DNA from: a virus
IMG/VR virus record: IMGVR_UViG_3300032288_005579
Direction: 5' to 3' (one strand)
Length of the DNA: 64,000 nt
Each line of letters opens with the position of its first letter. The stretch's first letter is position 1. Position numbers and translations under genes: made by a program. The notes beneath the pieces are model-generated. The model made no database searches. It was not told the DNA's origin and saw only the letters and a program-made list of their open reading frames with translations. This document shows, in pieces, positions 32,249 to 61,858 of this stretch.

Positions 32249-32686
32249 ATGACACAGTTAACTAAATTCGCAGGTTTTGATCTTGATCCATTCGATCTGT
32301 TGTGGAGGAATTTCATAGACCACGACTCAAGATTCAACACACTACTAGAAAAAGTAAACTATCCCACGGATATTTACGAAACCGAAGAAGGTATCACCTT
32401 CGAACTGGCCGTTGTAGGCTTGGATTCCAAAGACATCTCTGTAGAAACACAAGGAGAAGTGCTGAGGATCAAATACACAAAAGAAAAACACGAGGACGAG
32501 GCAAAGTATATCTACAAGGGTATTGCTAAGCGTTCGTTCGATTTGGCTTGGAAGGTTTCTTCTAAGTTCGACCTCACCAAACTTGAGGCTCAACTTGAAA
32601 GGGGACTTTTGACCATCCGTGTTCCTTTCGCTGAGACCGCGAAAGCAAAAGCAATCCAAATCAAAGAAGTAAAACAAGTAGGATAA
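32249..32686 (+). CDS. hsp20: Small heat shock protein (Hsp20 / alpha-crystallin)
   Basis: YPTDIYE, FELAVVG, YIYKGIAKRSF, AQLERGLLTIRVP. Confidence 0.92.
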   Translation: MTQLTKFAGFDLDPFDLLWRNFIDHDSRFNTLLEKVNYPTDIYETEEGITFELAVVGLDSKDISVETQGEVLRIKYTKEKHEDEAKYIYKGIAKRSFDLAWKVSSKFDLTKLEAQLERGLLTIRVPFAETAKAKAIQIKEVKQVG

Positions 32687-32718
32687 GATAAAGGCCTGTC
32701 GACCTTTATCGTTTAGTT

Positions 32719-32910
32719 ATGTTTTCCCTATGTACACAATTCATCACCGTCCAGGAAAGTCTCTATAAAATAGAGAGAATATTTGATGAGCACAGAGTCC
32801 CTGACGTTGAGCTTTTTAAATACTGGCTCCGTGCTGAAACAGTGTTCAGAAAGGATGGAAAATTGTACTTTTGTAACAAAATAGAAGAAGCAGAAATTGT
32901 AAACGAATAA
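32719..32910 (+). CDS. Hypothetical protein
   Basis: 63 aa between hsp20 and groES; FRKDGKLYFCNKIEEAE. Confidence 0.65.
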   Translation: MFSLCTQFITVQESLYKIERIFDEHRVPDVELFKYWLRAETVFRKDGKLYFCNKIEEAEIVNE

Positions 32911-32916
32911 ACAACT

Positions 32917-33210
32917 ATGAGCAAATTAAAACCATTGAATGGAAATGTGATCCTTAAAAAGGTCGAAGAGTCCGAACAAACTTACGGACAGATAGTCATA
33001 CCCGACATGGGTAAAGAAAAACCGGAACTTGGCGAAGTAGTCGCGGTCAGCGATACGTACAATTGGCACAAAGGTTCGGATGTTGCGTCTAATCTCAAAC
33101 CCGGTCAACTGGTGTTGATTCCAAAAATGGGAGCTATGTCATTCTCTATAGACACTGAGGATTATATCATCATTAAGGAAACTGAGGTACTATCAATCAT
33201 CGAAAAATAA
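32917..33210 (+). CDS. groES: Co-chaperonin GroES
   Basis: LKPLNGNVILK, GQIVIPD..KEKP..GEVVAV, YIIIKETEVL. Confidence 0.92.
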   Translation: MSKLKPLNGNVILKKVEESEQTYGQIVIPDMGKEKPELGEVVAVSDTYNWHKGSDVASNLKPGQLVLIPKMGAMSFSIDTEDYIIIKETEVLSIIEK

Positions 33211-34826
33211 TGAGCACAACTAAAAACGTATTCGGCACAGAACTCAAGGAGAAGCTGTACGCCGGCATATCAAAGCTTAACGAGTCCGTATCTTCTACGC
33301 TTGGACCGGGAGGTCGCACCGTACTGATTCGCGAACAGAACGGAGAGGTTAAAGTTACCAAAGACGGTGTATCAGTAGCAAAAGCATTTCACAAGTTGGA
33401 GGACGACATCGAGGACCTTGGCGCACAACTCGTCAAGCAAGTGGCGATCAAGTCCGCTAACGAAGCTGGTGATGGTACTACGACTTCTACGCTTCTCGCC
33501 GCCGAGATTGTAAATCAAGGCATCAAAGAGGTCCGTGGAGGTCGTAATGCTGTCGCTATCAAGCGTGAGCTAGATAAATTGACCGCTGAAGTGATCGAAG
33601 ACATCAAGAAGATCGCCATTCCCGTAAATTCAGAAGATCAGATTAGGCAAGTAGCGACCATTTCAGGTAACAACGACGAAGAGGTCGGAAACCTTATTGC
33701 TACTGCTATTGAAAAAGTGGGTCGCGAAGGCGTTGTGACCATCGAAGAGTCCAAGACGGGTGAGACCAGCTTAGAAGTTGTGGAAGGCATGCAGTTCGAT
33801 CGCGGCTACAAGTCGCCTTACTTCGTGACCAACAACACCTCCATGCAGGCTGTTTTAGAAGACTGCTATGTGATGCTCTTCGATGGAAGAATATCTACGG
33901 CGCAAGAACTTCTCCAAGCATTGACCAAGTGTAACTCAGAAAACAAACCTCTCTTGGTGATCGCAGAAGATTTTGGAGATGAAGCTCTTGCTACTCTTAT
34001 CGTAAATAAGATGAGAGGCATTGTACAAGTGTGCGCAGTAAAAGCGCCAGAGTTCGGAGAGAGAAAAACACTAGTGCTTGAGGACATCGCAATCCTCACA
34101 GGCGGTCAAGTACTGTCTAAGGACAAGGGTCACAAACTCGATAAGATTCCTTCAGCACAACTGTCTCAATACCTCGGTAAAGCTAGACTCGTAACCGTTT
34201 CCAAAGAGGATACGACAATCGTAGACGGAAAGGGTTCCTCAGAATCCATCGAAGCGCGCGCTAATGAGATCAAAGAGCAGATCGAAAAATCGCAATCGTT
34301 CTTCGAAAAAGAAAAACTACAAGAGCGACTGGGTAAAATGGTAGGCGGTGTGGCCATCATCAACGTAGGCGGTAACTCTGAGATCGAGATCAAGGAGAAG
34401 AAGGACCGATTGGAAGATGCGCTATACGCCACTAAAGCGGCACTCGCAGACGGTATCGTAGCAGGTGGTGGAGCCACCCTGTACAGGCTTTCGATAGCTC
34501 ACAGAGGAACCACTACGGCGGAAGGCGACATCGCGTACATGATCCTTCAGGACGCTTTGCAAGCACCGTTCGAAAAGATCCTCAGTAACGCTGGAATCGA
34601 GAACTGGTGGGACAACCTTCCAAGGGGCGAGAATGAAGTGTTTGACGCTAAGAATCGTAAGATCGTGGACGCGTTCGAAGCCGGCATCATCGATCCTGCA
34701 AAGGTTGTGATCACTGCCCTTAAGAACGCAGTCTCGGTCGCTGGTACAATTCTCACCACAGAAAGCGTGGTATTCGAGAAGAAGGACAAAGACGAGAAGG
34801 CGGATCCTATGGCGGGAATGATGTAA
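33210..34826 (+). CDS. groEL: Chaperonin GroEL
   Basis: [46 protein letters not shown]. Confidence 0.96.
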
Positions 34827-35286: not shown

Positions 35287-35359
35287 CGCGGGTTATGGAA
35301 GTGGTCATCCGCCAGGTCTCATAAGCCAGGAATCGGGGGTTCGAATCCCTCACCCGCTA
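35287..35359 (+). tRNA. tRNA with CAT anticodon (Met, or Ile2 if lysidinylated)
   Basis: 73 nt; GCGGGT/ACCCGC acceptor with unpaired 1:72, CTCATAA loop (CAT at 35320-35322), GGGGG-TTCGAAT-CCCTC T arm; CCA not encoded. Confidence 0.85.
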
Positions 35360-35363
35360 CTAA

Positions 35364-35552: not shown

Positions 35553-36599
35553 ATGCAAAAATTCATAATCAACAAAGACTTATTGGCTGCGCTTGACGAT
35601 TACGATCGCAAGAGCAACCTCATGGAGAAACACTCCAACGTGGGGCTTCCCTACGAAGGAGACCTCAAAGCAGACGTCAACGACGATCTGATCTACCACG
35701 TACCAATCTACGATACATGTCAGCGGAGATTCGCGGCCTTCTGTTCTTTCACTGAGGCCATATGGCACAAGCACGAGGATCCGCGCAAGATGGGAAAACA
35801 CTTCGCAGATCACCATATACCCGAAGAGTTCGATTGGTTCATGCTGTGGTATTTGTTTCGACTGTGCGGCAGCGGCATCAACTATGTGCCTCGCTACTCT
35901 AAAGAAACCATTAAAGACATACTCGGTACCCACGGTTATGGCAACTTCTGGATCATCGACTCTATATTGAAGGGTCGTTACACTTGGCAAGAGTGGAGAG
36001 AAGATCTGAGAAACCGCATCAGACCCTTCACAGACAATAAAGGATATCTGCTACCTCAATTCACGTTCGAAGGAGAGCGCAGCGGAAACCATCTGCGTAG
36101 GTTCATACTCGAACACTCAGAGAGATTGGTGAGACACATCTTCGATAAAGTAACTAAAGAGAGGATGGACATCTATCAAGTAACCGATTACGGCAACGAG
36201 TACCTCAAAGAACAGGGATTCAAGAAGCAGAACTTCGTGCTCACAGCTTTTGCGGCAGACATAGCAGAATACATGCCACAGTACGTGAACCCTAAGGGAT
36301 ACGTGTACTGCGGAACCAACGCTGTGCGGTGCATCAACGCAATATTCCCAAAGGTGTCTAAGAAAGTAAAAGACTTCGAGTACCTCAACGAGGTGCTACA
36401 GTTTCTATCAGACAGATACAACTTGAACCCTATCGACTGCGAAGACGCGAGAGCGTGCGACGTTGTACGATACTTCCAAGAATACCAGTCTCCAGATCAT
36501 GTCATTAAGAATGATGGACGAAAGATGCTCAACAACTCTGTATTGAAGCAGATTTGGGGAGAAGAGAAGTATTACGACTTCGCAAACAAAATAAAGTAA
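35553..36599 (+). CDS. aGPT-Pplase-like (alpha-glutamyl/putrescinyl-thymine pyrophosphorylase; amino acid:DNA transferase superfamily) base-modification enzyme
   Basis: HVPIYDTCQRR, WYLFRL, FVLTAFAADIAEY..VYCGTNAVRCI and IDCEDARACDVVRY parallel the family pattern (F.NV.R..DR; FRLFN; F.AYQ..TDL...GPGA..GL; DIEN.LCE..KY). ATG at 35553. Confidence 0.6.
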   Translation: MQKFIINKDLLAALDDYDRKSNLMEKHSNVGLPYEGDLKADVNDDLIYHVPIYDTCQRRFAAFCSFTEAIWHKHEDPRKMGKHFADHHIPEEFDWFMLWYLFRLCGSGINYVPRYSKETIKDILGTHGYGNFWIIDSILKGRYTWQEWREDLRNRIRPFTDNKGYLLPQFTFEGERSGNHLRRFILEHSERLVRHIFDKVTKERMDIYQVTDYGNEYLKEQGFKKQNFVLTAFAADIAEYMPQYVNPKGYVYCGTNAVRCINAIFPKVSKKVKDFEYLNEVLQFLSDRYNLNPIDCEDARACDVVRYFQEYQSPDHVIKNDGRKMLNNSVLKQIWGEEKYYDFANKIK

Positions 36600-36600
36600 C

Positions 36601-37482
36601 ATGTTCGAAAACAAGGCAACGGACCAATCCAACTTGGATTTGGAGGGAGGCAGGGATCTTAACTACTACCTCGACATGACCAAAGACTACAAGTCGGATG
36701 CGGAGTTCAAGATAAAACAGCTTGAAGGTTTCAACGTCATCGACGATGGAGAATTCCAGTACGGAACCAAAGCCAGAATGGGCGACTTCATGATCAGTCG
36801 AGTGAAGGAGGACACTTTAGTATACGTGGCACCTAGAACAGGCTACGCTCCTTACTCTCTCACGTACCTAGCAAAGAAGTACAACAAGAAACTGGTGCTC
36901 TTCATGCCCGCTTCCAAAGAGGCATCCGAACACCAGCTCAGAGTGATAGAGGAAGGCGCCACACCCATATTCCTTAGGACAGCAGCAATGCCGACTCTCA
37001 ACGCTTGGGCCAAACAGTTCGCTCAAAAGACTGGCGCAAAGTACTTGCCATTCGGACTCAAGCACGAGGAGGTCGTGGCAGGTGGAGTGCGCATATTCCA
37101 CGACGCACTCAAAGACCTGAACATACCCGAAATGTGGACAGTATTCTCAACCGGTGTGCTGTCCAGAACCCTTCAGATCGCTCTTCCCAATACGACGTTC
37201 AATGCTGTAGCTGTCGCAAGGAACGTGCAACCAGGCGAACTAGGCAGAGCCAGATTCTATACCTACGATAAGGCATTCACAAGAGAATCAAAGGTCCATG
37301 TACCGTTCGATTGCATCAAGACCTACGACGCAAAGGGTTGGGAGTATATGAAGAAGTACGGTAAGGAGGGCGACTGGTTCTGGAACGTGGCAAGGAACAT
37401 GCCGAAACCGACCATAAAACCAAGCGATGTTGACTCAGAACGGGCTTGGGGAGATAAGTCAGATATGGACAAGTACCTATAA
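36601..37482 (+). CDS. PLP-dependent enzyme, fold type II (TrpB / cysteine synthase-like)
   Basis: GTKAR (Schiff-base Lys), VYVAPRTGYAPYSL, LVLFMP, STGVLSR phosphate loop, YDAKGW. Confidence 0.8.
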   Translation: MFENKATDQSNLDLEGGRDLNYYLDMTKDYKSDAEFKIKQLEGFNVIDDGEFQYGTKARMGDFMISRVKEDTLVYVAPRTGYAPYSLTYLAKKYNKKLVLFMPASKEASEHQLRVIEEGATPIFLRTAAMPTLNAWAKQFAQKTGAKYLPFGLKHEEVVAGGVRIFHDALKDLNIPEMWTVFSTGVLSRTLQIALPNTTFNAVAVARNVQPGELGRARFYTYDKAFTRESKVHVPFDCIKTYDAKGWEYMKKYGKEGDWFWNVARNMPKPTIKPSDVDSERAWGDKSDMDKYL

Positions 37483-37524
37483 AATTTATTAGATTAGCTG
37501 AACAAATTAGTGTATATTAAAACT

Positions 37525-37809
37525 ATGAAAAACAAAAACATACTTGAAGAAGCAAATGAAATTGTCAACAGACGATCTCAAGAAAAGGAACGAATGTACG
37601 GTCCATTTTCTGAGGGAATGGAACGCGCTGCTATGATCATGCGTGGAATGACAGGCAAGAATTTTACAGCCGAAGACGTATACGTTGCATTGGTTGCATT
37701 AAAACTTTCTAGGCATTCTTACAATTATCGCAGAGATAATCTACTTGATGCCACTGCATACTTAGGAGCTTTAGATAATTACATCTCAGATAAACAAAGC
37801 AAAAAATAA
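37525..37809 (+). CDS. DUF6378-like small all-alpha protein (possible nucleotide pyrophosphohydrolase)
   Basis: ILEEANEIV...YG...DV...LKLSR...RDNLLDATAY pattern. Confidence 0.7.
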   Translation: MKNKNILEEANEIVNRRSQEKERMYGPFSEGMERAAMIMRGMTGKNFTAEDVYVALVALKLSRHSYNYRRDNLLDATAYLGALDNYISDKQSKK

Positions 37810-37810
37810 T

Positions 37811-37975
37811 ATGAGTACTAAATCGCAGATCAATAGAATTAGGGATAAAATCAAAGAAGTAGTCACTTCTCCGGCAAAAGATTGGTTTGATAGAACTGTA
37901 AACAAGTCAGCAAAACTTAGGATACTGAGAAGAAAGTTGCACAATTTAGAGGTCGCTAGAACAAAGGGACGATGA
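37811..37975 (+). CDS. Small basic hypothetical protein
   Basis: 54 aa MSTKSQINRIRDKIKE...TKGR*, fills the gap with an ATGA overlap to the next gene; not in the ORF track. Confidence 0.55.
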   Translation: MSTKSQINRIRDKIKEVVTSPAKDWFDRTVNKSAKLRILRRKLHNLEVARTKGR

Positions 37976-38310
37976 ATTTATTTTATGGGATATTGACGGG
38001 CATTATAGCACAAGCTATAACATTTTGTCAATTACAGGGAAGCGCTAAGTGGGGATGGTATGAAAAATATCCTATACTCATACTTCTTTTGGGAATCCCA
38101 TCGTCTTATTTTTTTATAAAGTCTACTCACAGTATCATAGAGGTTTATAACGGAGAAATATGGCCTAGTAGATTGTTAGGATTTGGAACAGGTATCATAA
38201 CTTTTTACGTAATGAGTTACCTATTATTTCACGAATCCATAACTCTGAAAACTATTATTTGTTTAATACTGTCTTTCGCTATCGTAGCTATTCAATTGTA
38301 TTGGAGATGA
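37972..38310 (+). CDS. Small 4-TM membrane protein (SMR/DMT-like)
   Basis: 112 aa, four hydrophobic helices, IWPSRLLGFG. Confidence 0.6.
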   Translation: MNLFYGILTGIIAQAITFCQLQGSAKWGWYEKYPILILLLGIPSSYFFIKSTHSIIEVYNGEIWPSRLLGFGTGIITFYVMSYLLFHESITLKTIICLILSFAIVAIQLYWR

Positions 38311-38519
38311 TGCTAGAATTTCAAAGTCCTATACCGGTTATAGTAGAGAACGACAAAGAAGGTTACGCTATATACGTTACAAACGGAGGGTCCTTTGAAA
38401 ACGATATTTGGTGTGTTGTGCATTGCGATGGAGGGCATGTTAGACACTATACAAGCGATCAAATAAAAATACATGCGAATGCTACTTTAGGAATACAAAA
38501 AATCAATACACCAAAATGA
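38307..38519 (+). CDS. Conserved hypothetical phage protein
   Basis: MMLEFQSPIPV...GYAIYV..GG.FENDIWCVV..DGG.VRHY; ATG at 38307 overlaps the upstream stop. Confidence 0.65.
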   Translation: MMLEFQSPIPVIVENDKEGYAIYVTNGGSFENDIWCVVHCDGGHVRHYTSDQIKIHANATLGIQKINTPK

Positions 38520-38677
38520 AGAGTTTTTTACTTGGCACAATAGGTGTTATAGTAGCTGCTATAATACCATTTGGAATACTAAAATTAGCAGCGACCATGA
38601 TGGATAGAAAAGAACGACTACAAAAACAAAAACAATATGAAGATCAAGAAAATAAGACAGGTAAAGACACCAACTAG
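38516..38677 (+). CDS. Small membrane-anchored hypothetical protein
   Basis: 53 aa with hydrophobic N-terminus and ATGA overlap; overlaps the dUTPase start by 41 nt. Confidence 0.4.
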   Translation: MKSFLLGTIGVIVAAIIPFGILKLAATMMDRKERLQKQKQYEDQENKTGKDTN

Positions 38678-39074
38678 AGGCACACCTGATAGCGCAGGAA
38701 TCGATCTGTACATTCCTAAGGACTACACTAATAAGCCAATAACCATCGAACCGGGAGAGTCACTATTCATTCCCAGCGGCATAAAAGCACATGTTCCAAA
38801 AGGACACGCATGGGTCGCTATGAATAAGAGCGGAGTAGCTGTGAAACAGGGTCTATCGGTAGGAGCGCAAGTTGTGGATGCCGATTACGATGGAGAAATA
38901 CATATTCACGTGTTCAATTTCTCCGATATACCCCAAGAGATTCAGCCCGAACAAAAGATAATTCAAATGTTACTTTTGCCCGTAAACTTCGAAAACATTG
39001 AAGAGGTGGAAGAACTTCCTGATAGGAAGACAGAGCGGGGTAGCGGAGGATTCGGAAGCACAGGATTACAATAG
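38637..39074 (+). CDS. dut: dUTPase (trimeric)
   Basis: SAGIDL, NKSG, VVDADYDGEI, RGSGGFGSTG. Confidence 0.93.
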   Translation: MKIKKIRQVKTPTRGTPDSAGIDLYIPKDYTNKPITIEPGESLFIPSGIKAHVPKGHAWVAMNKSGVAVKQGLSVGAQVVDADYDGEIHIHVFNFSDIPQEIQPEQKIIQMLLLPVNFENIEEVEELPDRKTERGSGGFGSTGLQ

Positions 39075-39076
39075 TC

Positions 39077-39556
39077 ATGGGAAGAGAAGAGACCATACAC
39101 ATCTTAGAGGAAAGAACTAGGCAAAAATTGTCTAAGCTTGATGCTGTATACGTTAACATAGCAAAAGAAGTGGGATCTCTTTCTAATTGTGAAAGAAGTA
39201 AAGTCGGCGCCATACTTGTAAAAGACGGTAACATAATATCCATGGGGTATAATGGAACTCCCAAGGGTTTTGATAATTGCTGTGAAGACGTCGTAGTAGT
39301 CGATGGAGAGAGTAAACTTGTTACTAAAAAGGAAGTGCTGCATGCGGAAATGAATGCAGTTTTAAAAGCAGCGAGAACCGGAAATTCAGTCGAAGGATCT
39401 ACGCTGTACATAACTCTTGCGCCTTGCATAGATTGCTCGAAATATCTATTGCAATCGGGAATACGAAGAGTTGTATATTTGGAAGAGTATAGGGACAATA
39501 GCGGAGTTACGCTGTTGGGTAATTACATAAAAGTAGAAAAGTATGATGTTAAGTAA
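39077..39556 (+). CDS. dCMP deaminase
   Basis: KVGAILVKD, GYNGTP, LHAEMNA, APCIDC zinc motifs. Confidence 0.92.
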   Translation: MGREETIHILEERTRQKLSKLDAVYVNIAKEVGSLSNCERSKVGAILVKDGNIISMGYNGTPKGFDNCCEDVVVVDGESKLVTKKEVLHAEMNAVLKAARTGNSVEGSTLYITLAPCIDCSKYLLQSGIRRVVYLEEYRDNSGVTLLGNYIKVEKYDVK

Positions 39557-40178
39557 TGCAACAGAGGCGTTTGAATATTTGTACCACGATTTGAATACTC
39601 GAGGGGAGGATTTTGCTGGAACGAAGGCAAGATTCAATGCTTCATTCACCGTGTCAAACGTAGAAGATAACATCATTGAAACTCCACAACGAGCTTTCAA
39701 AAAGAGTTACGCTGAATACGAATGGAACTGGTATCTTACGGGGAATAGAGACGCGAAAGAAATAGCTGAGCGTGCCAAAATATGGCAAAACATGATGGTT
39801 CCTGGTACTACAGAGGTTAATTCCAACTACGGGTATTTTTGGAAGTACAATGATCAGTTAGATAGAGTCATAAACGAGTTAAAGAACAATCCAAATACCC
39901 GCCGCGCCATAGTGGTTCATTATGATATCAATGAACTCGATAGGTACAAATACGATACACCGTGTAATGATGTATTGAACTTCTACGTTAAGGACGGAAA
40001 GTTAGAACTCACAGTCTTCGCTAGAAGCATAGATCTGTGGTTCGGATTCTGCAACGATTTCTATATATTTTCCAGACTCATGAAGATGGTATCTAAAGAA
40101 ACAGGTTATGAGTTGGGAAACATGCATTGGTTCATTACGAATTTACATATATACGAAAGACACTACAACAAACTATAA
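39543..40178 (+). CDS. Thymidylate synthase homologue with a dCMP-type specificity residue (dCMP hydroxymethylase/methylase-like)
   Basis: Catalytic PCN, NSNYG, RSIDLWFGFCND (Asp at the E. coli TS N177 position, as in T4 gp42 FGFRND), NLHIY. Confidence 0.8.
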   Translation: MMLSNATEAFEYLYHDLNTRGEDFAGTKARFNASFTVSNVEDNIIETPQRAFKKSYAEYEWNWYLTGNRDAKEIAERAKIWQNMMVPGTTEVNSNYGYFWKYNDQLDRVINELKNNPNTRRAIVVHYDINELDRYKYDTPCNDVLNFYVKDGKLELTVFARSIDLWFGFCNDFYIFSRLMKMVSKETGYELGNMHWFITNLHIYERHYNKL

Positions 40179-40179
40179 C

Positions 40180-40506
40180 ATGCAATTTACAGAAGTTAAG
40201 TGCGTCATGGGCGCAGAAGATTACAACTTAAAATTGGGGCATCTATACTTGGCCGAGGTTACCAAAAACGGACACTATAAACTTTTAGAAACTTCACCAC
40301 CGGAACCGTACAATTGTTTTCACAAGGAACGATTTGAACCCACTGGAAAGGTATATAGTTACGAAGAGATCTTCGGTACGTATGAAGAATATTATTATGA
40401 TCACTCGAAAGGATTTTGCGAAGAATGCGAGGATTATTTCGTATATTTAAATAGTTTAAAAGCAAAACACAAAGACAATGGAGACACCAATGAAAGCCAA
40501 TCTTAA
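40180..40506 (+). CDS. Hypothetical protein
   Basis: ATG at 40180 just after the TS stop; CxxC near the C-terminus. Confidence 0.6.
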   Translation: MQFTEVKCVMGAEDYNLKLGHLYLAEVTKNGHYKLLETSPPEPYNCFHKERFEPTGKVYSYEEIFGTYEEYYYDHSKGFCEECEDYFVYLNSLKAKHKDNGDTNESQS

Positions 40507-40720: not shown

Positions 40721-41626
40721 GTGGAAAAGAAGCCTATAGAGATTAATCACGCTTACCAAAAAAGCGTATCGTACAGTCAATTGTCCATGTATACGAATTG
40801 TCAGTATTCGTGGTACCTGGCTTACGTCAAGAAGAAAAAGGTATTCAAACCAGGAATTCACCTTCTTTACGGTACATCGTTACACGAGACTCTGCAAAAT
40901 TACTTGCATGTCATGTACAACGAATCTATCAAGGCGGCCGACGAAATCGATTTAAGCGCATATTTAGAAGATAGGATGATAGCCAATTATAAGGCTGATC
41001 TGGAAAATAACGACAAACAACACTATTGTACCAAAGAGGAATTCAAGGAGTTTTTAGAGGACGGAGTTGCCTCTTTAGAGTGGTTCAAAAAGAATCGTGG
41101 CAAATACTTCTCTAGAAAAGACACAGAGCTCGTAGGCATAGAAATACCCATCTTACAATCCGTAACCGACTATTCTCCCAATGTTCTCATTCAGGGTTAT
41201 ATCGACTTTATACTTTATCACAAGGATACCGATAGTTATACTATTTTTGATATCAAAACGTCTACGCGAGGCTGGAAGGACAAAGAGAAGAAGGACGCTA
41301 CGAAGCTCAGTCAGATCCTCATCTACAAACACTTTTACTCTAAGGCCCTCAACATCCCAGAGGAAAAGATCGATGTCAAGTTTTTCATAGTCAAGAGAAA
41401 GATCTTCGAATCCACGGAGTTCAAGGTTTCAAGGATCCAAGAGTTTGTTCCTGCTAACAAGACTAAAAAAGTAAAGGAAGCTTACACGAGTTTGGAGAAC
41501 TTTATCAAGGAGTGCTTCACTCCAGACGCTAAATACAACGAAGAGCGGGTGTATCCTAAAAATACAGACGCCTGTAAGTACTGCCCTTACAAAGATAAAC
41601 CTGAGCTTTGCGATAGAAAGAACTAG
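40721..41626 (+). CDS. PD-(D/E)XK exonuclease, Cas4/AddB-like with a probable Fe-S cluster
   Basis: SYSQLSMYTNC, GTSLH, GYIDF, DIKTS, QILIY, CKYCPY...C. Confidence 0.85.
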   Translation: MEKKPIEINHAYQKSVSYSQLSMYTNCQYSWYLAYVKKKKVFKPGIHLLYGTSLHETLQNYLHVMYNESIKAADEIDLSAYLEDRMIANYKADLENNDKQHYCTKEEFKEFLEDGVASLEWFKKNRGKYFSRKDTELVGIEIPILQSVTDYSPNVLIQGYIDFILYHKDTDSYTIFDIKTSTRGWKDKEKKDATKLSQILIYKHFYSKALNIPEEKIDVKFFIVKRKIFESTEFKVSRIQEFVPANKTKKVKEAYTSLENFIKECFTPDAKYNEERVYPKNTDACKYCPYKDKPELCDRKN

Positions 41627-41671
41627 TGTATTTCCACATTTACATATATTTATAATAAAGATAATGTAAAT

Positions 41672-41893
41672 ATGGAAAAGAAGTTCTCTACAACGACGGT
41701 TAAGATACCTGAAAAAATGTATCAAGACTACAAGATCATGAACGTGAGAGCGGACATGAATTTACAAGATCTAGTTCATAGATCTATGTATCTATACTTG
41801 ACTGATGCAGATTTTAGGTATAAAATACACCAAACCTATTCAACTTATTATACAGGAAGCGATATAATGAATGCGATAACAAACTTCAAATAG
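41672..41893 (+). CDS. Ribbon-helix-helix-like regulator
   Basis: TTVKIPEKMYQDYK...LQDLVHRSMYLYL; after TATTTATA, heading the glycan operon. Confidence 0.6.
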   Translation: MEKKFSTTTVKIPEKMYQDYKIMNVRADMNLQDLVHRSMYLYLTDADFRYKIHQTYSTYYTGSDIMNAITNFK

Positions 41894-41895
41894 TT

Positions 41896-43341
41896 ATGGA
41901 AAATATCAAAGAGGGTTATATTCCAAAAACCGACAGAAAGAAAATACTGTTGATGTGCGACGATATTAGAATGCACTCAGGCATAGCCACAATGGCAAGA
42001 GAAATAGTTTTAGGTACTTCTCACAGATTCAATTGGGTAAATTTAGGCGCCGCAATAAATCATCCAGAGATGGGTAAGAAATTAGACCTTTGTGATGACA
42101 CAAGCAAACACGCTGGAATACCCGATTCAAGTGTATACGTGTATCCCTCCAATGGATACGGAACTATTGAGATCGTTAGGCAGCTTATCAACGATGAAAA
42201 GCCGGATGCAATAATGATATTCACCGATCCCAGGTATTGGGTGTGGTTTTTTCAGATGGAGAACGAAGTACGAAAACACATTCCAGTTTTTTACTTATCT
42301 ATTTGGGACGATTATCCTGCTCCTAATTATAATAAATCATATTATGATTCTTGCGATCTTTTAATGTCCATTTCAAAACAAACAGAGAATATTCACAAGC
42401 TTGTTTTGGGGGATAGAGCTAAGGATAAGATTATAACTTATGTTCCTCACGGAATAAATCATAGGAGTTTTTACCCGATAACCGAAGACTCTCACGAAAC
42501 ACTGGCACTTCAAGAATTTAAGAAAAATGTTTTTGGTAAAGACACGCCAGAATTCGTGGTATTCTATAACTCAAGAAATATCAGGCGGAAGTGTACTTCT
42601 GATTTGATATTTGCATACTCTGTGTTCTGTGATATGATAGGAAAAGAGAAAGCATCAAAATGCGCGCTTCTTCTACACACACAAAAAGCTGACGAAAACG
42701 GCACCAATCTTCAAGCCGTAGTAGATCTCGTATGCGATCCAGAGTATCAAAAAGTGTATTTCTCAGAGAGCGCTATAGGCGTAAATCTAATGAATATGCT
42801 TTACAACTTAGCAGATGTGACTGCGCTTATATCTTCTAACGAAGGTTGGGGGCTTTCTTTGACAGAGTCAATGATGGCCGGAAGAATGATCATCGCTAAC
42901 GTAACTGGTGGTATGCAGGATCAAATGAGATTCGAAGATGAAAACGGGGATTGGATAAAGTTCGATGACAACTTCCCCTCTAACCACACTGGAAAGTACA
43001 AGAATTGCGGAGAATGGGCTGTACCCGTATTCCCCTCCAACATCAGTGTAGTAGGATCTATACCCACGCCGTATATATACGACGATCGCTGCGACTTTAG
43101 AGATGTTGCAAAAGCAATAAAAGAGGTTTATGACATGCCTAAAGAAGAGAGACTAGCAAGGGGAGAAAAGGGCAGGGAATGGGTTTTATCTGATGAGTCT
43201 ATGATGAGCGCTGACAATATGTCTAAGAACGTAATAAACTCAATTGAAGAGTGCTTTAATAAGTTCGAACCTAAATCCTATGAACTTATAAAAATAGAAA
43301 AATTGCCTCGTAAGAAAATCACACATAAACTAATTTACTGA
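41896..43341 (+). CDS. Glycosyltransferase, GT4 (GT-B)
   Basis: KILLMCDD...SG, YVPHG, RNIRRK, SSNEGWGLSLTESM, TGGMQDQ. Confidence 0.85.
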   Translation: MENIKEGYIPKTDRKKILLMCDDIRMHSGIATMAREIVLGTSHRFNWVNLGAAINHPEMGKKLDLCDDTSKHAGIPDSSVYVYPSNGYGTIEIVRQLINDEKPDAIMIFTDPRYWVWFFQMENEVRKHIPVFYLSIWDDYPAPNYNKSYYDSCDLLMSISKQTENIHKLVLGDRAKDKIITYVPHGINHRSFYPITEDSHETLALQEFKKNVFGKDTPEFVVFYNSRNIRRKCTSDLIFAYSVFCDMIGKEKASKCALLLHTQKADENGTNLQAVVDLVCDPEYQKVYFSESAIGVNLMNMLYNLADVTALISSNEGWGLSLTESMMAGRMIIANVTGGMQDQMRFEDENGDWIKFDDNFPSNHTGKYKNCGEWAVPVFPSNISVVGSIPTPYIYDDRCDFRDVAKAIKEVYDMPKEERLARGEKGREWVLSDESMMSADNMSKNVINSIEECFNKFEPKSYELIKIEKLPRKKITHKLIY

Positions 43342-43345
43342 TAAT

Positions 43346-44656
43346 ATGAAACCGTTGTGCGTTATATCGTGTCCAATAGACACATACTCAGGATACGGAA
43401 GCAGAAGCCGAGATTTCGTAAAAGCGCTTTACGAACTTAAGAAAGACGAATGGAACATTAAAGTCCTTTCACAGAGGTGGGGAAACACCCCATGGAATTA
43501 CATAAAGAACGAACTAAAGAACGATCAATATTGGGCTTTCTTAAAAGATGTTATCATACCCGGAAATCAATTGAATCAACAGCCTGATTATTGGTTTCAA
43601 ATAACAGTGCCTAACGAATTTCAACCAATAGGCAAGTTATACAACGTCGGAGTTACTGCAGGAATAGAGTCAACCATGTGCCATCCTACTTGGATAGATG
43701 GTATAAATAAAATGCCTCTGACCTTAGTGTCCTCCAATCACGCTAAGAACGTCATAAAGAATTCTGTCTTCCAAGAAAAGGATACAAATAATCCTGACAT
43801 TGTGAAACGTGAAGTACGATGCGAAAAACCCGTAGAAGTTTTATTCGAAGGTTTGGATACAAACAAGTATTTTTACATAGAGCCTAAAGACTATCCCAAA
43901 ACAAAACTAACCGAATCTTTAAATTCTATAGAAGAGAGTTTCAATTATCTGTTTGTTGGACATTGGTTGCAAGGGGCTCATGGCCACGATAGAAAGAATG
44001 TGGCAAGCATGATAAGAATGTTCTTAGAGACGTTTAAGAACCAGAAAAAGAAACCTGGTTTGATTTTGAAAACTACTCGAGTATCTAATAGCGTAATGGA
44101 CAGAGAAGACATATTGGAAAATATAGATCTTATAAGAAACTCTATAGACTCTAAAGATTTACCCAATATATATCTTTTACACGGTGAGTTGAATGATGAA
44201 GACATGAATCTCATATACAACCACAATAAAGTAAAAGCCATGTTGTGTCTAACTCACGGAGAAGGCTACTGTCGTCCACTGTTAGAGTTCAGTATCACGA
44301 AGAAACCTATCATAGCCAGCGGATGGTCAGGTCATCTAGATTTCTTAAAACCCGAATTTAACTCTTTAATTCCCGGACAATTACAGAATTTGCATCCGAG
44401 TGTATTAGTGGATAACATTCTGATAAAGGAGTCGTCGTGGTTTTATCCAGATGAAACAGCAAGTAAAGCAGTTATGGAAGTTATGTTTGAGAAGTACGAT
44501 AGATACCTAGAGAACGCTAAGAGACAGGCTTTTAGAAGTAAGACAGAATTTTCTATGGAAAATATGAAAGACAAACTTAGACAATTCGTAGATGCTTTTC
44601 CTAAACCTATACCTTTACAGTTACCTAAACTTAAAAAGATCAATGTATCAAATTAA
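43346..44656 (+). CDS. Glycosyltransferase, GT4 (GT-B)
   Basis: SGYG, YLFVG, RKNV, THGEGYCRPLLE, SGWSGHLDF. Confidence 0.85.
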   Translation: MKPLCVISCPIDTYSGYGSRSRDFVKALYELKKDEWNIKVLSQRWGNTPWNYIKNELKNDQYWAFLKDVIIPGNQLNQQPDYWFQITVPNEFQPIGKLYNVGVTAGIESTMCHPTWIDGINKMPLTLVSSNHAKNVIKNSVFQEKDTNNPDIVKREVRCEKPVEVLFEGLDTNKYFYIEPKDYPKTKLTESLNSIEESFNYLFVGHWLQGAHGHDRKNVASMIRMFLETFKNQKKKPGLILKTTRVSNSVMDREDILENIDLIRNSIDSKDLPNIYLLHGELNDEDMNLIYNHNKVKAMLCLTHGEGYCRPLLEFSITKKPIIASGWSGHLDFLKPEFNSLIPGQLQNLHPSVLVDNILIKESSWFYPDETASKAVMEVMFEKYDRYLENAKRQAFRSKTEFSMENMKDKLRQFVDAFPKPIPLQLPKLKKINVSN

Positions 44657-45545: not shown

Positions 45546-46163
45546 ATGAAAATAAGTTACGCCATTCCTGTATGTAACGAATTCGCGGAGTTAGATAGAC
45601 TTTTGAATGGGATTATTTCTCACGCTGAAGGTCCCTACGAAATAGTGGTTCAATGCGATCAAGGCAATACAACAGACGAAGTGCGTAACGTATTACAAAA
45701 ATACGAAAATAAAATTAAGGTTGTTGAATTTCCTCTAAATCAAGACTTTGCCTCTTTTAAAAATAACTTAAAGAAGAACTGTTCTGGGGATTGGATAATC
45801 CAAATTGATGCTGACGAGGAACTCACGCAAATGTTTCTAGAGAACGTGCACAACATATTAGACTCCAATCCAGAAGTAGAAGTGTTCTTTTTACCTAGAA
45901 TAAATACAGTGGAAGGATTAACAGATCATCACATAGCTAAGTGGAGATGGCGTGTTGATGAATTGGGCAGAATAAATTTCCCTGATTGGCAAACCAGAAT
46001 ACTTAAGAACCTTCCCAAAATTCAATGGAAAAACAAGGTTCACGAAGTTTTAAGCGGTTATACCAATTACACGCACTTCCCTACCGATGATGAGTTGTGC
46101 ATCATACATCGAAAAACTATAGATAGACAGGAAAAACAAAATGAATCCTATTCAAAGATATGA
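45546..46163 (+). CDS. Glycosyltransferase, GT2 (WaaE/KdtX-like)
   Basis: ISYAIPVCNE, DFASFKN, QIDADE, PDWQTRI, WKNKVHE. Confidence 0.85.
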   Translation: MKISYAIPVCNEFAELDRLLNGIISHAEGPYEIVVQCDQGNTTDEVRNVLQKYENKIKVVEFPLNQDFASFKNNLKKNCSGDWIIQIDADEELTQMFLENVHNILDSNPEVEVFFLPRINTVEGLTDHHIAKWRWRVDELGRINFPDWQTRILKNLPKIQWKNKVHEVLSGYTNYTHFPTDDELCIIHRKTIDRQEKQNESYSKI

Positions 46164-47125
46164 AAACCGCTCTTATAACAGGAATAAACGGTCAGGACGG
46201 ATCATATCTAGCTGAACATCTATTGGATTTGGGGTACGAAGTTCATGGTATACTCAAAAGAAATTCTGTAGCTGAGAATCAAACCGCAAGATTGGATTCT
46301 ATTTACGATAGACTTAAACTCCAATACGCAGATCTAACTGACATATCTTCCCTTTATCGAGTAATCAATAAGGTTAAACCTCACGAAATATATAATCTAG
46401 CAGCCCAATCTCACGTGAGGATATCATTCGATCAACCCCTATATACGGCACATTCTACAGGATTGGGAGCTTTGAATCTTTTAGAGGCCGTAAAAGAGGC
46501 AGACACAAACATAAAAGTTTATCAAGCCTCTTCGTCAGAGATGTTTGGAAATAGCATAGATCCTGACGGATACCAAAGAGAAACCACTGCCATGAACCCA
46601 GTGTCTCCTTACGGTTGCGCTAAGGTATTCGCTTACAACATATCTAGAAACTACAGGAACTCTTACGGTATGTTTGTGTCTAACGGCATACTGTTCAATC
46701 ACGAGTCTCCAAGAAGGGGAACTAACTTCGTTACAAACAAGATCTGCAAAGAGGCAGTAAAAATAAAATTACGCATTTCGGATAAACTTTCATTGGGTAA
46801 TCTAGACGCATCCAGAGACTGGGGTCACGCCAAGGATTATGTCAAAGCAATGCATTTGATCCTGCAATTGGATAAACCAGACGATTTTGTATGCGCAACA
46901 GGACAGTCCCACACAGTTAGAGATTTGTGCGAATTTGCCTTCTCTGAATTGGGATTGGACTATAGAAACTACGTTGTGCAGGAAGAGAAGTACCTTAGAC
47001 CAGAAGAATTGAATTTCTTAAAGGGGGATTCCTCAAAATTAAAAGCTGCAACCGGTTGGACACTCGAGTATTCTTTTGAACAAATGATACGAGAAATGTT
47101 AAATTATTGGCTACGTAAAGTATGA
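46160..47125 (+). CDS. gmd: GDP-mannose 4,6-dehydratase
   Basis: ALITGINGQDGSYLAE, NLAAQSHV, QASSSEMFG, SPYGCAK, NHESPRRG, RDWGHAKDY. Confidence 0.95.
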   Translation: MKTALITGINGQDGSYLAEHLLDLGYEVHGILKRNSVAENQTARLDSIYDRLKLQYADLTDISSLYRVINKVKPHEIYNLAAQSHVRISFDQPLYTAHSTGLGALNLLEAVKEADTNIKVYQASSSEMFGNSIDPDGYQRETTAMNPVSPYGCAKVFAYNISRNYRNSYGMFVSNGILFNHESPRRGTNFVTNKICKEAVKIKLRISDKLSLGNLDASRDWGHAKDYVKAMHLILQLDKPDDFVCATGQSHTVRDLCEFAFSELGLDYRNYVVQEEKYLRPEELNFLKGDSSKLKAATGWTLEYSFEQMIREMLNYWLRKV

Positions 47126-48030
47126 ATAAAGTTGTTATTACAGGAGGAAACGGATTAGTCGGAAAGTACCTTCAGCGTCATATGGATGGTGTGTTCTTGG
47201 GCTCAAAAGACTTTGATCTCACTATTGAGAGCGAAGTATCTAAAATGTATCAAGTGCACCGACCTGATGTTGTTATACATCTAGCAGCTAGAGTCGGTGG
47301 TATAATGGATAACATAAATAAACCATTTCCATACTATGAAGATAACGTGTTAATGAACAGTTATGTAATGAAGTACGCGAGATTGAACGATGTAAAAAAG
47401 TTCATCGGCGTGTTATCCACTTGCGCTTATCCAGATATAGCACCATCTACTTATCCTATGGTAGAAGAGGATTTGCATCACGGAATACCTAACGAAAATA
47501 ATTACGGATACGGATATTCAAAGAGAATGTTGGCGGTTCATATAGACATCGCTAGAAAACAGGGTTTGAATTATTCATACATATTGCCCTCAAATTTATA
47601 TGGAGAATTTGAACACGGAGATTCTAATAGGCGTCACTTTGTTGGTGCGCTTTTAGAAAAAATACGAGAAGCAAAGAAGAACAACCATAATAAGATCACG
47701 TTGTTCGGAGATGGATCTCCATTAAGGCAGTTTACTTTTGCAGAAGATGTTGCTAAAATACTGAAACTAATAGTAGAAAAGGACGTCAAAGAAAATATAA
47801 ATGTGAGCACGGAAGAGAACATGACGATAGATGAAATGGCGAGAAAAGCTTTGATAGCGACAGATTCTAGGAACTTAAGTATAGAATACGATACAACTAA
47901 ACCAAATGGACAGTATAGAAAAGATGTTTCCATAAAAAAGTTGAAACGCATTTTTCCAGAGTACGAATTTACTTCGTATATTGATGGTATTAGAAAAACA
48001 TACAAAGCAATAAATAAAAATCATGAATGA
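47122..48030 (+). CDS. fcl: GDP-L-fucose synthase
   Basis: HLAARVGGI, STCAYP, YGYSKR, PSNLYG, GDGSPLRQF, KPNGQYRK. Confidence 0.88.
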   Translation: MNKVVITGGNGLVGKYLQRHMDGVFLGSKDFDLTIESEVSKMYQVHRPDVVIHLAARVGGIMDNINKPFPYYEDNVLMNSYVMKYARLNDVKKFIGVLSTCAYPDIAPSTYPMVEEDLHHGIPNENNYGYGYSKRMLAVHIDIARKQGLNYSYILPSNLYGEFEHGDSNRRHFVGALLEKIREAKKNNHNKITLFGDGSPLRQFTFAEDVAKILKLIVEKDVKENINVSTEENMTIDEMARKALIATDSRNLSIEYDTTKPNGQYRKDVSIKKLKRIFPEYEFTSYIDGIRKTYKAINKNHE

Positions 48031-49372
48031 CAAAAAACAACAAATTCTCGATCTAATAAGCGAGTACGTAAAGGAAAAGAAAACCAATAAAACATGGAAA
48101 CCTGGAGAGGATTGGGTACAGTATTCGGGTCCCTACTTTGACGATAAGGAATTCACCAATGCAGTAGACGCTCTTTTGAAAGAGTGGTTTATATTAGGAG
48201 AAAAAGGTCGTGAATTTGAAAAACGCTTTGCTCCCCATTTGGGCAAGAAAGATGGCGTACTAGTTAACTCAGGTAGCTCCGCGAACTTGTTGATGGTGTC
48301 TGTATTGAAGACAAAGCGAGGAGGAAAATTACCGGTAGGATCCAAGTTCATAACTCCTGTGGTTTGTTTCCCCACAACAATCAACCCTCTAATCCAAAAC
48401 GGTTATAAACCCGTGTTTGTGGATGTTACTCTTCCAAACCTCAATCTAAATTTAGATAAGGTAGAAGACATTTTGGAGAAGGACACGAACAGAGAAATCA
48501 AGGGCATTATATTTGCCCACGTATTGGGAAATCCTCCTGATATGGATAGACTTATTTCCATAATCAAAAAGTACGAGCTCATCTACTTAGAAGACTGCTG
48601 CGATGCGCTAGGTTCTACATGGGAAGGTAAACCTCTAGGTTCATTCGGAGACATAGCTACATGCTCGTTCTTCCCAGCCCACCACATGACCATGGGAGAG
48701 GGAGGATTCGTAGCCATAAACAGTGCAAAAATGAGAATGGCATTGGCTTCTTTACGAGATTGGGGTCGTGCGTGCTATTGTAACACCGTGAAACCTGGAA
48801 ATGTAATGGATGGTACAGGTTGTGGATGTAGATTCAACACGTGGTTTAAGGGACATGACGATATCGTTTTCGATCACAGATACGTGTTCGACGAAATTGG
48901 ATACAATGTAAAGCCCACTGAAATGCAAGCGGCTATGGGATTGGCACAATTGGATAAACTGGAATTGATGCACAGCAGAAGAAAACATAACTTCAACAGA
49001 CTCAAATCCATATTTAGTAAGTATGAAAACTACTTCTATATCCCGTATGCATCAGATAAGGCCGACGTATCTTGGTTTGGATACTTAGTAACTTTAAAGG
49101 ATAATGTACCCTTCAAAAAATCCGATCTTGTGGATTTTATGGAAGCTGCTAAAATACAAACCAGATCTTATTTTACGGGTAATGCACTACTGCATCCCGC
49201 TTACGAAGAGCAAGCTAAAGAGTACGAAGATCCGAGAAATCAATTTCCAGTTGCTACTAAAACTACCATCGATACCTTCTTTTTAGGTGTTTATCCAGGA
49301 ATAACTGATGAACAGCTGGATTACATAGAAAATACATTGGATAATTTCATGAAGGATCACAATAAAAAGTAA
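48023..49372 (+). CDS. rfbH: CDP-4-keto-6-deoxyglucose 3-dehydrase E1 (PMP, Fe-S)
   Basis: VNSGSSANL, EDCCDALG, FFPAHHMTMGEGG (His instead of Lys), WGRACYC...CGCRF Fe-S motif, SWFG. Confidence 0.9.
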   Translation: MNDKKQQILDLISEYVKEKKTNKTWKPGEDWVQYSGPYFDDKEFTNAVDALLKEWFILGEKGREFEKRFAPHLGKKDGVLVNSGSSANLLMVSVLKTKRGGKLPVGSKFITPVVCFPTTINPLIQNGYKPVFVDVTLPNLNLNLDKVEDILEKDTNREIKGIIFAHVLGNPPDMDRLISIIKKYELIYLEDCCDALGSTWEGKPLGSFGDIATCSFFPAHHMTMGEGGFVAINSAKMRMALASLRDWGRACYCNTVKPGNVMDGTGCGCRFNTWFKGHDDIVFDHRYVFDEIGYNVKPTEMQAAMGLAQLDKLELMHSRRKHNFNRLKSIFSKYENYFYIPYASDKADVSWFGYLVTLKDNVPFKKSDLVDFMEAAKIQTRSYFTGNALLHPAYEEQAKEYEDPRNQFPVATKTTIDTFFLGVYPGITDEQLDYIENTLDNFMKDHNKK

Positions 49373-49378
49373 AATAGT

Positions 49379-50371
49379 GTGGGATACATATCATTTCCTC
49401 GAATAGGTTACTCAGGTAATTTAGGATCCCAGTTATCCCAATACTCTGCTCTTTATGCTGTGGCCAAGAATAATGGTTTAGATGTGGTATTTCCTGAGTC
49501 TAGCGTATACGATGGATGGGGACATAAGTTTGCTGCCGTATTCAATATGGAAACAAATTATATATCTGACAAGTGTTTCTCTAGTCTATCTCTTCCTTAT
49601 TTAGGATTGGCCGAGTACAATAGACGGGCGAACGGTATACCTCAGTCACAAAACTTTTCTGAATCCGTTACCCTTAATTGGGAATTGTTGCCTGTCAATA
49701 GTAGACATGTGACTAAAGATAGATTATTGAACTTAGATAAAAATAAAAACTACTGGGTGGATGAGTTATTCCACATGTTTGAGGATTACCATCCCAATTA
49801 CAGAGAGGAAATTCTATCTTGGAGATGGAATAAGGACAAGTACGCGGCTGCGAAAAAAGATTACGATAAGATAAAAGTAGAAGGAAAAGAGTTGGTTTCT
49901 ATCCATGTTAGAAGAGGCGATTATTTATCTCATGATCACTTCTGTAAATTGGATCAAGATTATTATAATGAAGCGCTATCGTATTTTACTGAAGACATGG
50001 ACAAATACCACTTTGTCGTATTCTCTAATGATATACCGTGGTGCAAAGAGAACCTTATAGAGGGCAACAAAGTTACTTTCGTAGATCCGCCCGGACAGGA
50101 TATAGTTCAAATAAAGAGATCAGATTACCCCATAGAAATGTCTGATGACGCTAGTGATCTTATCCTCATGAGTATGTGTGATCACAACATAATAGCTAAT
50201 AGTAGTTTTAGTTGGTGGGCTGCGTATACAAACTCCAATCCCAATAAAAAAGTAATCTATCCGCAAAATTACGTCAAATGGAATAGTCCAGTCGCCATAG
50301 ATTTAAATGACGGTAAATATGCTGTACAAGATTTGGGTTGGATACCTGTAAAAAACACTGATAAAGTATGA
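49379..50371 (+). CDS. alpha-1,2-fucosyltransferase-like (GT11)
   Basis: GNLGSQL, SIHVRRGDY, VFSNDI.WCK, IIANSSFSWWAAY. Confidence 0.88.
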   Translation: MGYISFPRIGYSGNLGSQLSQYSALYAVAKNNGLDVVFPESSVYDGWGHKFAAVFNMETNYISDKCFSSLSLPYLGLAEYNRRANGIPQSQNFSESVTLNWELLPVNSRHVTKDRLLNLDKNKNYWVDELFHMFEDYHPNYREEILSWRWNKDKYAAAKKDYDKIKVEGKELVSIHVRRGDYLSHDHFCKLDQDYYNEALSYFTEDMDKYHFVVFSNDIPWCKENLIEGNKVTFVDPPGQDIVQIKRSDYPIEMSDDASDLILMSMCDHNIIANSSFSWWAAYTNSNPNKKVIYPQNYVKWNSPVAIDLNDGKYAVQDLGWIPVKNTDKV

Positions 50372-54112: not shown

Positions 54113-54113
54113 T

Positions 54114-54740: not shown

Positions 54741-54760
54741 CAATTAAATAAAAGAAAGAT

Positions 54761-61850: not shown

Positions 61851-61858
61851 TCCAATCT

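Follow-up and report, generated by a model that had tools for sequence, protein, structure and literature searches.

The 64,000-nucleotide stretch analysed here (the window) forms bases 4629-68628 of the IMG/VR virus record IMGVR_UViG_3300032288_005579, the genome of an uncultured aquatic phage, which is 183,411 bp long and which CheckV rates as complete. At positions 35553-40178 the window holds a set of tightly packed genes which abut or overlap one another, all genes of this region lying on the + strand. We propose that this cassette, together with a partner gene encoded outside the window, serves a post-replicative hypermodification of 5-hydroxymethylcytosine (5hmC) of the amino-acid type, in which the base would be activated by an acyl instead of a phosphoryl group; we regard this reading as likely, though well short of certain. 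A first-pass annotation of the DNA had listed in the cassette an aGPT-Pplase-like protein (X in what follows), a fold-type II pyridoxal phosphate (PLP) enzyme, a DUF6378 protein, a dUTPase, a dCMP deaminase and a homologue of thymidylate synthase (TS), all of which are indeed present on the + strand, and had read them as a probable new pathway of base hypermodification. This interpretation is supported by the evidence given below, from which we infer the product and the order of the reactions.

The thymidylate synthase homologue

The TS homologue (39543..40178, + strand, 211 aa, PF00303 E 4.5e-31) is the sole one in the genome, in which no ThyX was found. It has the TS fold, its catalytic C141 being located within a D-T-P-C motif. 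We numbered its residues by E. coli positions, via alignment to B. subtilis ThyA and T4 gp42. In this numbering D138 takes the place of L143, C141 that of C146, D164 that of D169 and, through the motif RSIDLWFGFCND, D172 that of N177, so that the signature at E. coli positions 143/146/169/177 reads D/C/D/D. The Asp of the dCMP type which had been noticed in the first-pass annotation is this D172.

According to Lee et al. 2026 (PMC13326640), the substitution N177D makes dCMP the substrate, an acidic residue at 143 (L143D/E) lets water in and leads to hydroxymethylation, and D169N is the mark of the 5-hydroxy-dCMP synthases, a class which is excluded when D169 is kept. Under these criteria, the signature of the window enzyme is therefore that of a synthase of 5-hydroxymethyl-dCMP (5hm-dCMP). 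The same four residues are found in each of the 66 complete TS homologues encoded at related X loci (67/67 when the window's own is included). Since Asp169 is kept in the window enzyme and in these 66 relatives, the predicted product is 5hm-dCMP and not 5-hydroxy-dCMP (5ho-dCMP), and a 5-hydroxy-dCMP synthase of the RB69 gp48 type is ruled out. T4 gp42 is 30% identical to the window protein (E 1e-21). We conclude that the TS homologue is very probably a T4-type dCMP hydroxymethylase supplying 5hmC. A split or frameshifted TS gene was also considered and rejected: the sequence at 40180-40506 has no TS similarity, and the Pfam match has just a few residues beyond the stop.

When the cassette is compared with the hydroxymethylcytosine (hmC) pathway of T4, the likeness does not stop at the identity with gp42 and its D143/C146/D169/D177 residues, as in both cases a dCMP deaminase and an enzyme of the dUTPase family accompany the hydroxymethylase. 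The dCMP deaminase of the window (39077..39556, + strand, PF00383 E 6e-25, phrog_174 E 3.7e-52) is directly upstream of the hydroxymethylase gene and overlaps it. The dUTPase is of the trimeric type (38637..39074, + strand, PF00692 E 5e-25, phrog_135 E 5.5e-38), and a putative dCTPase side activity of this enzyme is possible. The two systems differ in that no homologue of the T4 dCTPase gp56 was detected in the DUF6378 protein (37510..37809, + strand, PF19905 E 3e-11), and in that the later enzymes are AADT-like (AADT, amino acid:DNA transferase), PLP-dependent and of the SGNH fold instead of being the alpha- and beta-glucosyltransferases of T4. The DUF6378 protein, which has no PDB sequence match and no usable ESM Atlas match, could be a putative nucleotide-pool enzyme.

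In RB69, DLP3 and RL38JI, 5-hydroxy-dCMP synthases act first and arabinosylation or hexosylation follows (PMC13326640). These phages resemble the present one in that the modified dCMP destined for later decoration comes from a TS homologue which has N177D and is acidic at position 143; they differ from it in their D169N, which is absent here, in their product, predicted here to be 5hm-dCMP and not 5ho-dCMP, and in their decoration, which here would not be a sugar. As a side observation, on another contig with the cassette (L005:2965-4894) the Asp-type TS homologue of 323 aa comes after a 330-aa protein with uracil-DNA glycosylase and faint thymidylate-kinase matches.

Protein X and the PLP enzyme

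Protein X is encoded at 35553..36599 (+ strand, 348 aa), its ATG start at 35553 being consistent with the length of its homologues (347-348 aa). It has no sequence match in Pfam, PHROG or PDB, a PDB profile search included, and no tblastn match among 50,697 phage records. Its family comprises at least 337 clusters at 90% identity, which are metagenomic and all unannotated.

The AlphaFold model of X, built with an alignment of 25 homologues, is all-helical and reaches a pLDDT of 92. Its top Foldseek matches, with weak E-values, are Qng1/DUF2419, OGG1, AGOG and PaMx11 gp46, and residues 12-313 of X align structurally to residues 8-258 of PUGT. In the ESM Atlas, the structure clusters nearest to X are viral and carry PF18723 (HMUDK_hel), PF18724 (ADDT) or the description 'putative amino acid:DNA transferase', with TM scores of 0.51-0.73; HMUDK_hel is commoner among them than ADDT. 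The two-helical-bundle fold of the DNA glycosylase type which is known from PaMx11 gp46 (8z2m, 8z2n) is thus found in X. The first-pass annotation had named the lack of an HhH-glycosylase-like fold as fatal to its reading; the AlphaFold model, Foldseek and the Atlas all indicate that this fold is present.

Sequence and profile comparisons gave a different picture. The ADDT family PF18724 has no match in X, in 25 of its homologues (searched with E-values as high as 10) or in the six-frame translation of the genome. When the alignment A1 of X, or one of 63 sequences, was compared by hhalign with the ADDT alignment, the probability was 0.2-0.6%, and the ADDT profile gave E-values of at least 0.98 against 112 representatives of the X family. 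Neither the helical domain of M6 gp54 (the M6 kinase) nor the C-terminus of ORF233c from Aeromonas phage 31 gave a significant hhalign match with X, and one of the 25 homologues matches PF18723, at E 0.031. There is no PF00730 match, which means that X does not have the Asp/Lys pattern of the Pfam HhH-GPD model. As the fold is like that of the aGPT-Pplase superfamily and no sequence match was found, X is kin to this superfamily by fold and not a member by sequence. Hence, the description 'aGPT-Pplase-like' stands for the HhH-glycosylase/AADT-like fold and fails for the sequence.

When 63 diverse representatives of the clusters are compared, the best-conserved residues include R58, R103, G106-S107-G108, G128, N131, D236 and G254. 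Near the C-terminus, X carries the motif E297-D298-x-x(-x)-C302-D303-x-x-R306, in which E297, D298 and C302 are kept in 98%, 90% and 96% of these representatives, respectively; the motif of the family is E-D-x-x-C, and E-D-x-x-x-C is the form of the subgroup to which the window belongs. The spacing of the family motif matches that of E243-T244-x-x-C247 in PUGT, also near the C-terminus, where E243 and T244 are ligands of a metal on O4 and C247 is the nucleophile at C6. The ends of the alignment range and the spacing of the motifs suggest that Cys302 of X may correspond to Cys247 of PUGT. We propose that X is a group-transfer enzyme which acts on activated 5hmC in DNA.

The gene of the PLP enzyme (36601..37482, + strand) starts at 36601, the X gene stopping at 36599. 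The protein matches phrog_7093 (E 9.5e-30), while its PALP match is of just 17.7 bits. That PLP-dependent enzymes decarboxylate amino acids bound to DNA has been proven for M6 gp52 and ViI gp226. The former belongs to the same PHROG (E 3.6e-159), and a profile of four orthologues of the window enzyme compared with it by hhalign gave a probability of 92% and an E-value of 5e-7 over 200 columns. K57, which is invariant within a G-T-K-A-R motif, falls on the PLP lysine when the enzyme is aligned to cysteine synthase. The part in an amino-acid hypermodification which had been assigned to this enzyme is supported by its homology to decarboxylases of DNA-bound amino acids, and we propose that, with the amino acid attached to the base, it would carry out a decarboxylation or other C-alpha chemistry. 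Proteins homologous to it with 28-30% identity also occur in the Erythrobacter phages vB_EliS_R6L and ZS04 and in the Microcystis phage Mae-JY30 (KY006853 (528-1232), PV416405, PP438422), under features named 'DNA modification methylase' or ParB, where they may belong to another hypermodification context.

The SGNH partner

On three unrelated contigs, an unannotated protein of 295-342 aa is followed by X and then by the PLP enzyme. The corresponding upstream partner in the present genome is P0125 (367 aa, genome 111150-112253), which lies outside the window, ~70 kb from the cassette. P0125 is a two-domain protein of the SGNH fold in which G-D-S184-H, N229 and H346 are invariant; the Ser of block I, the Asn of block III and the His of block V that define SGNH proteins are all there. 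Its family comprises at least 535 clusters at 90% identity. Between residues 78-131 of P0125 and residues 53-100 of the T4 beta-glucosyltransferase (BGT), hhalign found a weak match (probability 5-11%), with an N-x-F-G-G stretch in both.

The first-pass annotation had seen no P-loop 5-hydroxymethyluracil (5-hmU, or hmU) DNA kinase in the cluster and had suggested a different activation step. We could extend this lack to the whole genome of 183 kb: PF18723 (HMUDK_hel / 5-hmU DNA kinase) has no match in it, and a scan for Walker-A motifs returned a recombinase, a helicase and SbcC-like proteins only, none of them kinase-like. The SGNH-fold protein, which in relatives either neighbours X or forms a fusion with it, is a candidate for the different activation step. 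As its gene is not in the window, the first-pass annotation could not have noticed it.

P0125 itself belongs to a second locus (genome 110384-114800, L007:6385-10787), composed of an HhH-GPD glycosylase-like gene (PF00730, E 3e-10) which precedes it, P0125, P0126, a 172-aa open reading frame (ORF) and a weakly ParB-like protein of 320 aa. P0126 is a distant paralogue of X (hhalign probability 72%, E 3e-5) with an E-D-K-T-C motif. This locus may complete the modification system as its other half, or be a variant of it.

Conservation in uncultured phages

We examined 83 X loci of other uncultured phages, namely three contigs and 80 more from a scan of IMG/VR, and counted the genes located within 10 kb of X. 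The PLP enzyme, which adjoins X, is present at 82 of the 83 loci, the SGNH protein at 76, the DUF6378 protein at 74 and the TS homologue at 68; the dCMP deaminase (50/83) and the dUTPase (48/83) are less constant. Most misses occur where contigs end. The genes usually follow the order SGNH-X-PLP-(DUF6378)-(dUTPase)-(deaminase)-TS. Clustering at 70% identity divides X into eight lineages, all of which have the SGNH protein, the PLP enzyme and the TS homologue, while DUF6378 is found in five, the deaminase in four and the dUTPase in three of them. An exhaustive profile search further revealed natural fusions of an N-terminal SGNH protein with a C-terminal X in 8 of 114 cluster representatives, spanning lineages with 50-60% identity. 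That the AADT-fold X, the PLP enzyme of the decarboxylase family and the SGNH protein act together is thus supported by homology, fold, adjacency and fusions.

Among cultured phages, a 795-aa protein of the ORF233c type is found in the T4-like phages of Aeromonas (31, 44RR2.8t, 25 and others). Its N-terminal half belongs to the SGNH family of P0125 (E 4e-89), and the phages also encode an enzyme similar to gp42 whose signature is D/C/D/D. Unlike the fusions described above, its C-terminal half has a weak match to HMUDK_hel (E 0.0036), and neither an X-family nor a PLP homologue was found in the Aeromonas phage genomes, which therefore offer a partial cultured handle only. In Aeromonas phage 31 (L089:5414-9394), a sodium:solute symporter (PF00474, E 7e-53) is encoded directly upstream of the 795-aa fusion; it may import the transferred group.

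Proposed pathway

The pathway which we propose has four steps, the first of them strongly supported. The enzyme encoded at 39543 would make 5hm-dCMP, which would be phosphorylated and built into DNA as 5hmC, the nucleotide pool being adjusted by the dUTPase, the dCMP deaminase and perhaps the DUF6378 protein. After replication, P0125 would, as an SGNH acyl-enzyme, activate the 5-CH2OH group as an ester by means of its serine; it would fill in this way the role of the 5-hmU DNA kinase, whose activation in the thymidine pathways uses phosphate. X, as its fold and motif suggest, would then flip the base, and Cys302 would attack C6 and expel the leaving group, giving an exocyclic methylene to which X would add an amino acid or an amine, like the AADTs M6 gp51, ViI gp247 and PaMx11 gp46 on thymine. 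Finally, by homology, the PLP enzyme would decarboxylate the amino acid now in place or trim it otherwise. The pathway would end in a 5-substituted cytosine with an amine group, shielding the DNA from host nucleases.

To our knowledge, all amino-acid and polyamine hypermodifications that start from a TS-family hydroxymethylase are made on thymine and begin with a DNA kinase. The pathways of ViI, M6, PaMx11, PhiW-14 and SP10 employ a dUMP hydroxymethylase, a 5-hmU DNA kinase (5-HMUDK), an AADT or aGPT-Pplase2 and a PLP decarboxylase (PMC8989533, PMC5889632, PMC11472151). The cassette is like them in three respects: a hydroxymethylase of the TS family supplies a 5-hydroxymethylpyrimidine for later work in DNA, M6 gp52 has a homologue in the PLP enzyme, and X has the fold of PaMx11 gp46 with a Cys motif of equal spacing. 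It differs from them in that the hydroxymethylase is of the cytosine type (D177), in that the conserved third partner is an SGNH protein and no P-loop 5-HMUDK is present, and in that X matches neither ADDT nor HMUDK_hel of Pfam. We found no description of an X/PLP/SGNH/hydroxymethylase cassette in the literature.

Several facts weigh against the proposed pathway. Neither ADDT nor HMUDK_hel resembles X significantly in sequence or profile (hhalign probability of at most 6%), and for its best structural match PUGT is tied with Qng1, which acts on a mononucleotide. The putative correspondence of Cys302 with Cys247 is read from the ends of the alignment range and the spacing of the motifs. In this genome the SGNH gene is outside the cassette cluster, and we know of no SGNH enzyme that acts on DNA. 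Finally, the full cassette was found in no cultured phage, and the dCMP deaminase encoded here leaves some probability to an hmU route in this particular phage.

Alternative explanations

The main rival gives X a humbler role: X would be a DNA-binding helper which flips the base for the SGNH protein, as HMUDK_hel does for the 5-hmU DNA kinase, and not a transferase. The hydroxyl of 5hmC would then receive, through the serine of the SGNH protein, an acyl or an aminoacyl group whose donor could for instance be a thioester or an aminoacyl-tRNA; the PLP enzyme would act on the ester-linked amino acid, and the outcome would be O-acylated or O-aminoacylated 5hmC in place of a substitution at the C5 methylene. 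The greater frequency of HMUDK_hel than of ADDT among the nearest Atlas clusters and the PF18723 match of one X homologue speak for this, as do the layout of the fusions, in which an N-terminal enzyme is joined to a C-terminal X as the kinase is joined to HMUDK_hel, and the ORF233c of Aeromonas phage 31, where an SGNH protein is fused to a weakly HMUDK_hel-like domain. A pure binding domain would however have no need for a near-invariant Cys with acidic neighbours in the spacing of the AADTs, and ester-linked bases would be chemically labile; we consider the helper role of X unlikely. In a second rival the substrate is 5-hydroxymethyluracil, the deaminase turning 5hm-dCMP into 5hm-dUMP, which would be incorporated and hypermodified as in ViI and M6. 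The known AADT and PLP pathways all act on hmU, a TS proper is lacking from the genome, and the dCMP deaminase gene overlaps the hydroxymethylase gene here and lies within 10 kb of X at 50 of the 83 loci. But T4 combines a dCMP deaminase with gp42 and yet makes no hmU. Furthermore, X has an Asp beside the conserved Glu, at the place where AADTs have the Thr that is a ligand of the O4 metal, and an Asp would suit N4/N3 of cytosine. The first-pass annotation had left the choice between a modified cytosine and hmU reached by deamination of hm-dCMP. Because the deaminase is nearby in 4/8 lineages and the Asp-type hydroxymethylase in 8/8, direct modification of 5hmC is favoured, and the route through hmU seems to us quite improbable.

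The three enzymes could also act before replication on free nucleotides, building a modified dCMP or dCTP, and never meet the DNA. Polymeric DNA, however, is the substrate of the AADTs and of the homologous PLP enzymes, and apart from Qng1 the top structural matches of X are all DNA glycosylases, which makes action at the level of nucleotides very unlikely. There might, lastly, be no hypermodification at all: X would be a glycosylase of the repair type, the PLP and SGNH proteins would be unrelated auxiliary metabolic genes, and the DNA would contain plain 5hmC. It is true that X is outside every modification family by sequence. This explanation has nonetheless to account for a near-perfect adjacency, for SGNH-X fusions across lineages at 50-60% identity, for a PLP enzyme homologous to DNA-modifying decarboxylases and for an X devoid of the Asp/Lys pattern of HhH-GPD, and we give it hardly any credit. 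We keep to the post-replicative hypermodification of 5hmC as the preferred reading.

Genome context

Between the DUF6378 and dUTPase genes, four small ORFs of 54, 112, 86 and 53 aa (37811..38677, + strand) have no significant family matches. In most related loci DUF6378 abuts the dUTPase, that is, most relatives do not have the four ORFs. Bases 38308-38472 are 74% identical to a contig of an uncultured Caudoviricetes, where they adjoin thyX; this similarity suggests a small mobile gene. The four inserted ORFs are probably not members of the pathway. Directly after the hydroxymethylase gene comes an ORF of 108 aa (40180..40506, + strand) with no family match, a homologue of which is found at the same place in the locus L053.

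On the 5' side of the cassette are genes for a ribonucleotide reductase, a family-A DNA polymerase, Hsp20, GroES and GroEL, the last three being phage-encoded in a row at 32249-34826 of the window. A tRNA-Met gene at 35287-35360 stands ahead of X. A scan for promoters and terminators gave nothing exceeding chance.

By its DNA polymerase, the closest cultured relative of this phage is Flavobacterium phage vB_FspM_immuto (54% identity), with which it has in common the backbone order PolA-GroES-GroEL ... PD-(D/E)XK-GT-GT-GT2-aminotransferase (GT, glycosyltransferase). Immuto carries a 7-deazaguanine module (DpdA/QueD/QueE/FolE/QueF) and none of X, the PLP enzyme and the SGNH protein, whereas the present genome has the X cassette and no TGT/DpdA. 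Related backbones thus bear alternative DNA-modification modules. This alternation would mean that the modules are exchanged as anti-defence cassettes.

After the cassette, a PD-(D/E)XK nuclease is followed by two GT-B glycosyltransferases of 481 and 436 aa (window 40721-44656), a block which is also present in immuto and in L053. The best PDB relative is the chlorovirus glycosyltransferase B736L. Farther on, a glycan-biosynthesis cluster of ~18-20 kb (45546-63920) encodes a GT2 protein, a GDP-mannose 4,6-dehydratase, several epimerases and short-chain dehydrogenases/reductases, a DegT aminotransferase, GT11 and GT10 fucosyltransferase-like proteins and an FkbM methyltransferase. We considered whether the GT-B genes (41896, 43346) and the glycan cluster glycosylate hmC in DNA, and rejected them as members of the cassette. 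As the PD-(D/E)XK-GT-GT-GT2 block occurs in immuto, which has no such cassette, the GT-B genes belong to the backbone and not to the cassette. The start of the glycan cluster is also common with immuto and the cluster is therefore a backbone feature, more likely to serve glycans of the virion or of the host than the DNA.

Significance

We see not quite an even chance that in many uncultured aquatic phages cytosine is replaced by an undescribed derivative of 5hmC with an amino-acid-derived side chain, ester-activated by a DNA-directed SGNH acyl-enzyme. If true, this would extend the set of natural DNA bases and be the first case in which the hydroxymethylase route leads to a cytosine hypermodified in the amino-acid manner. 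It would also bring a novel activation chemistry for nucleobases in DNA, DNA-modifying enzymes of a new class, in which the SGNH fold works on DNA, and a new branch of the AADT-fold superfamily. Enzymes of such a kind are wanted for the selective chemical labelling of 5hmC. For the phages themselves, the modified base would explain the resistance to restriction and to CRISPR of a large environmental group.

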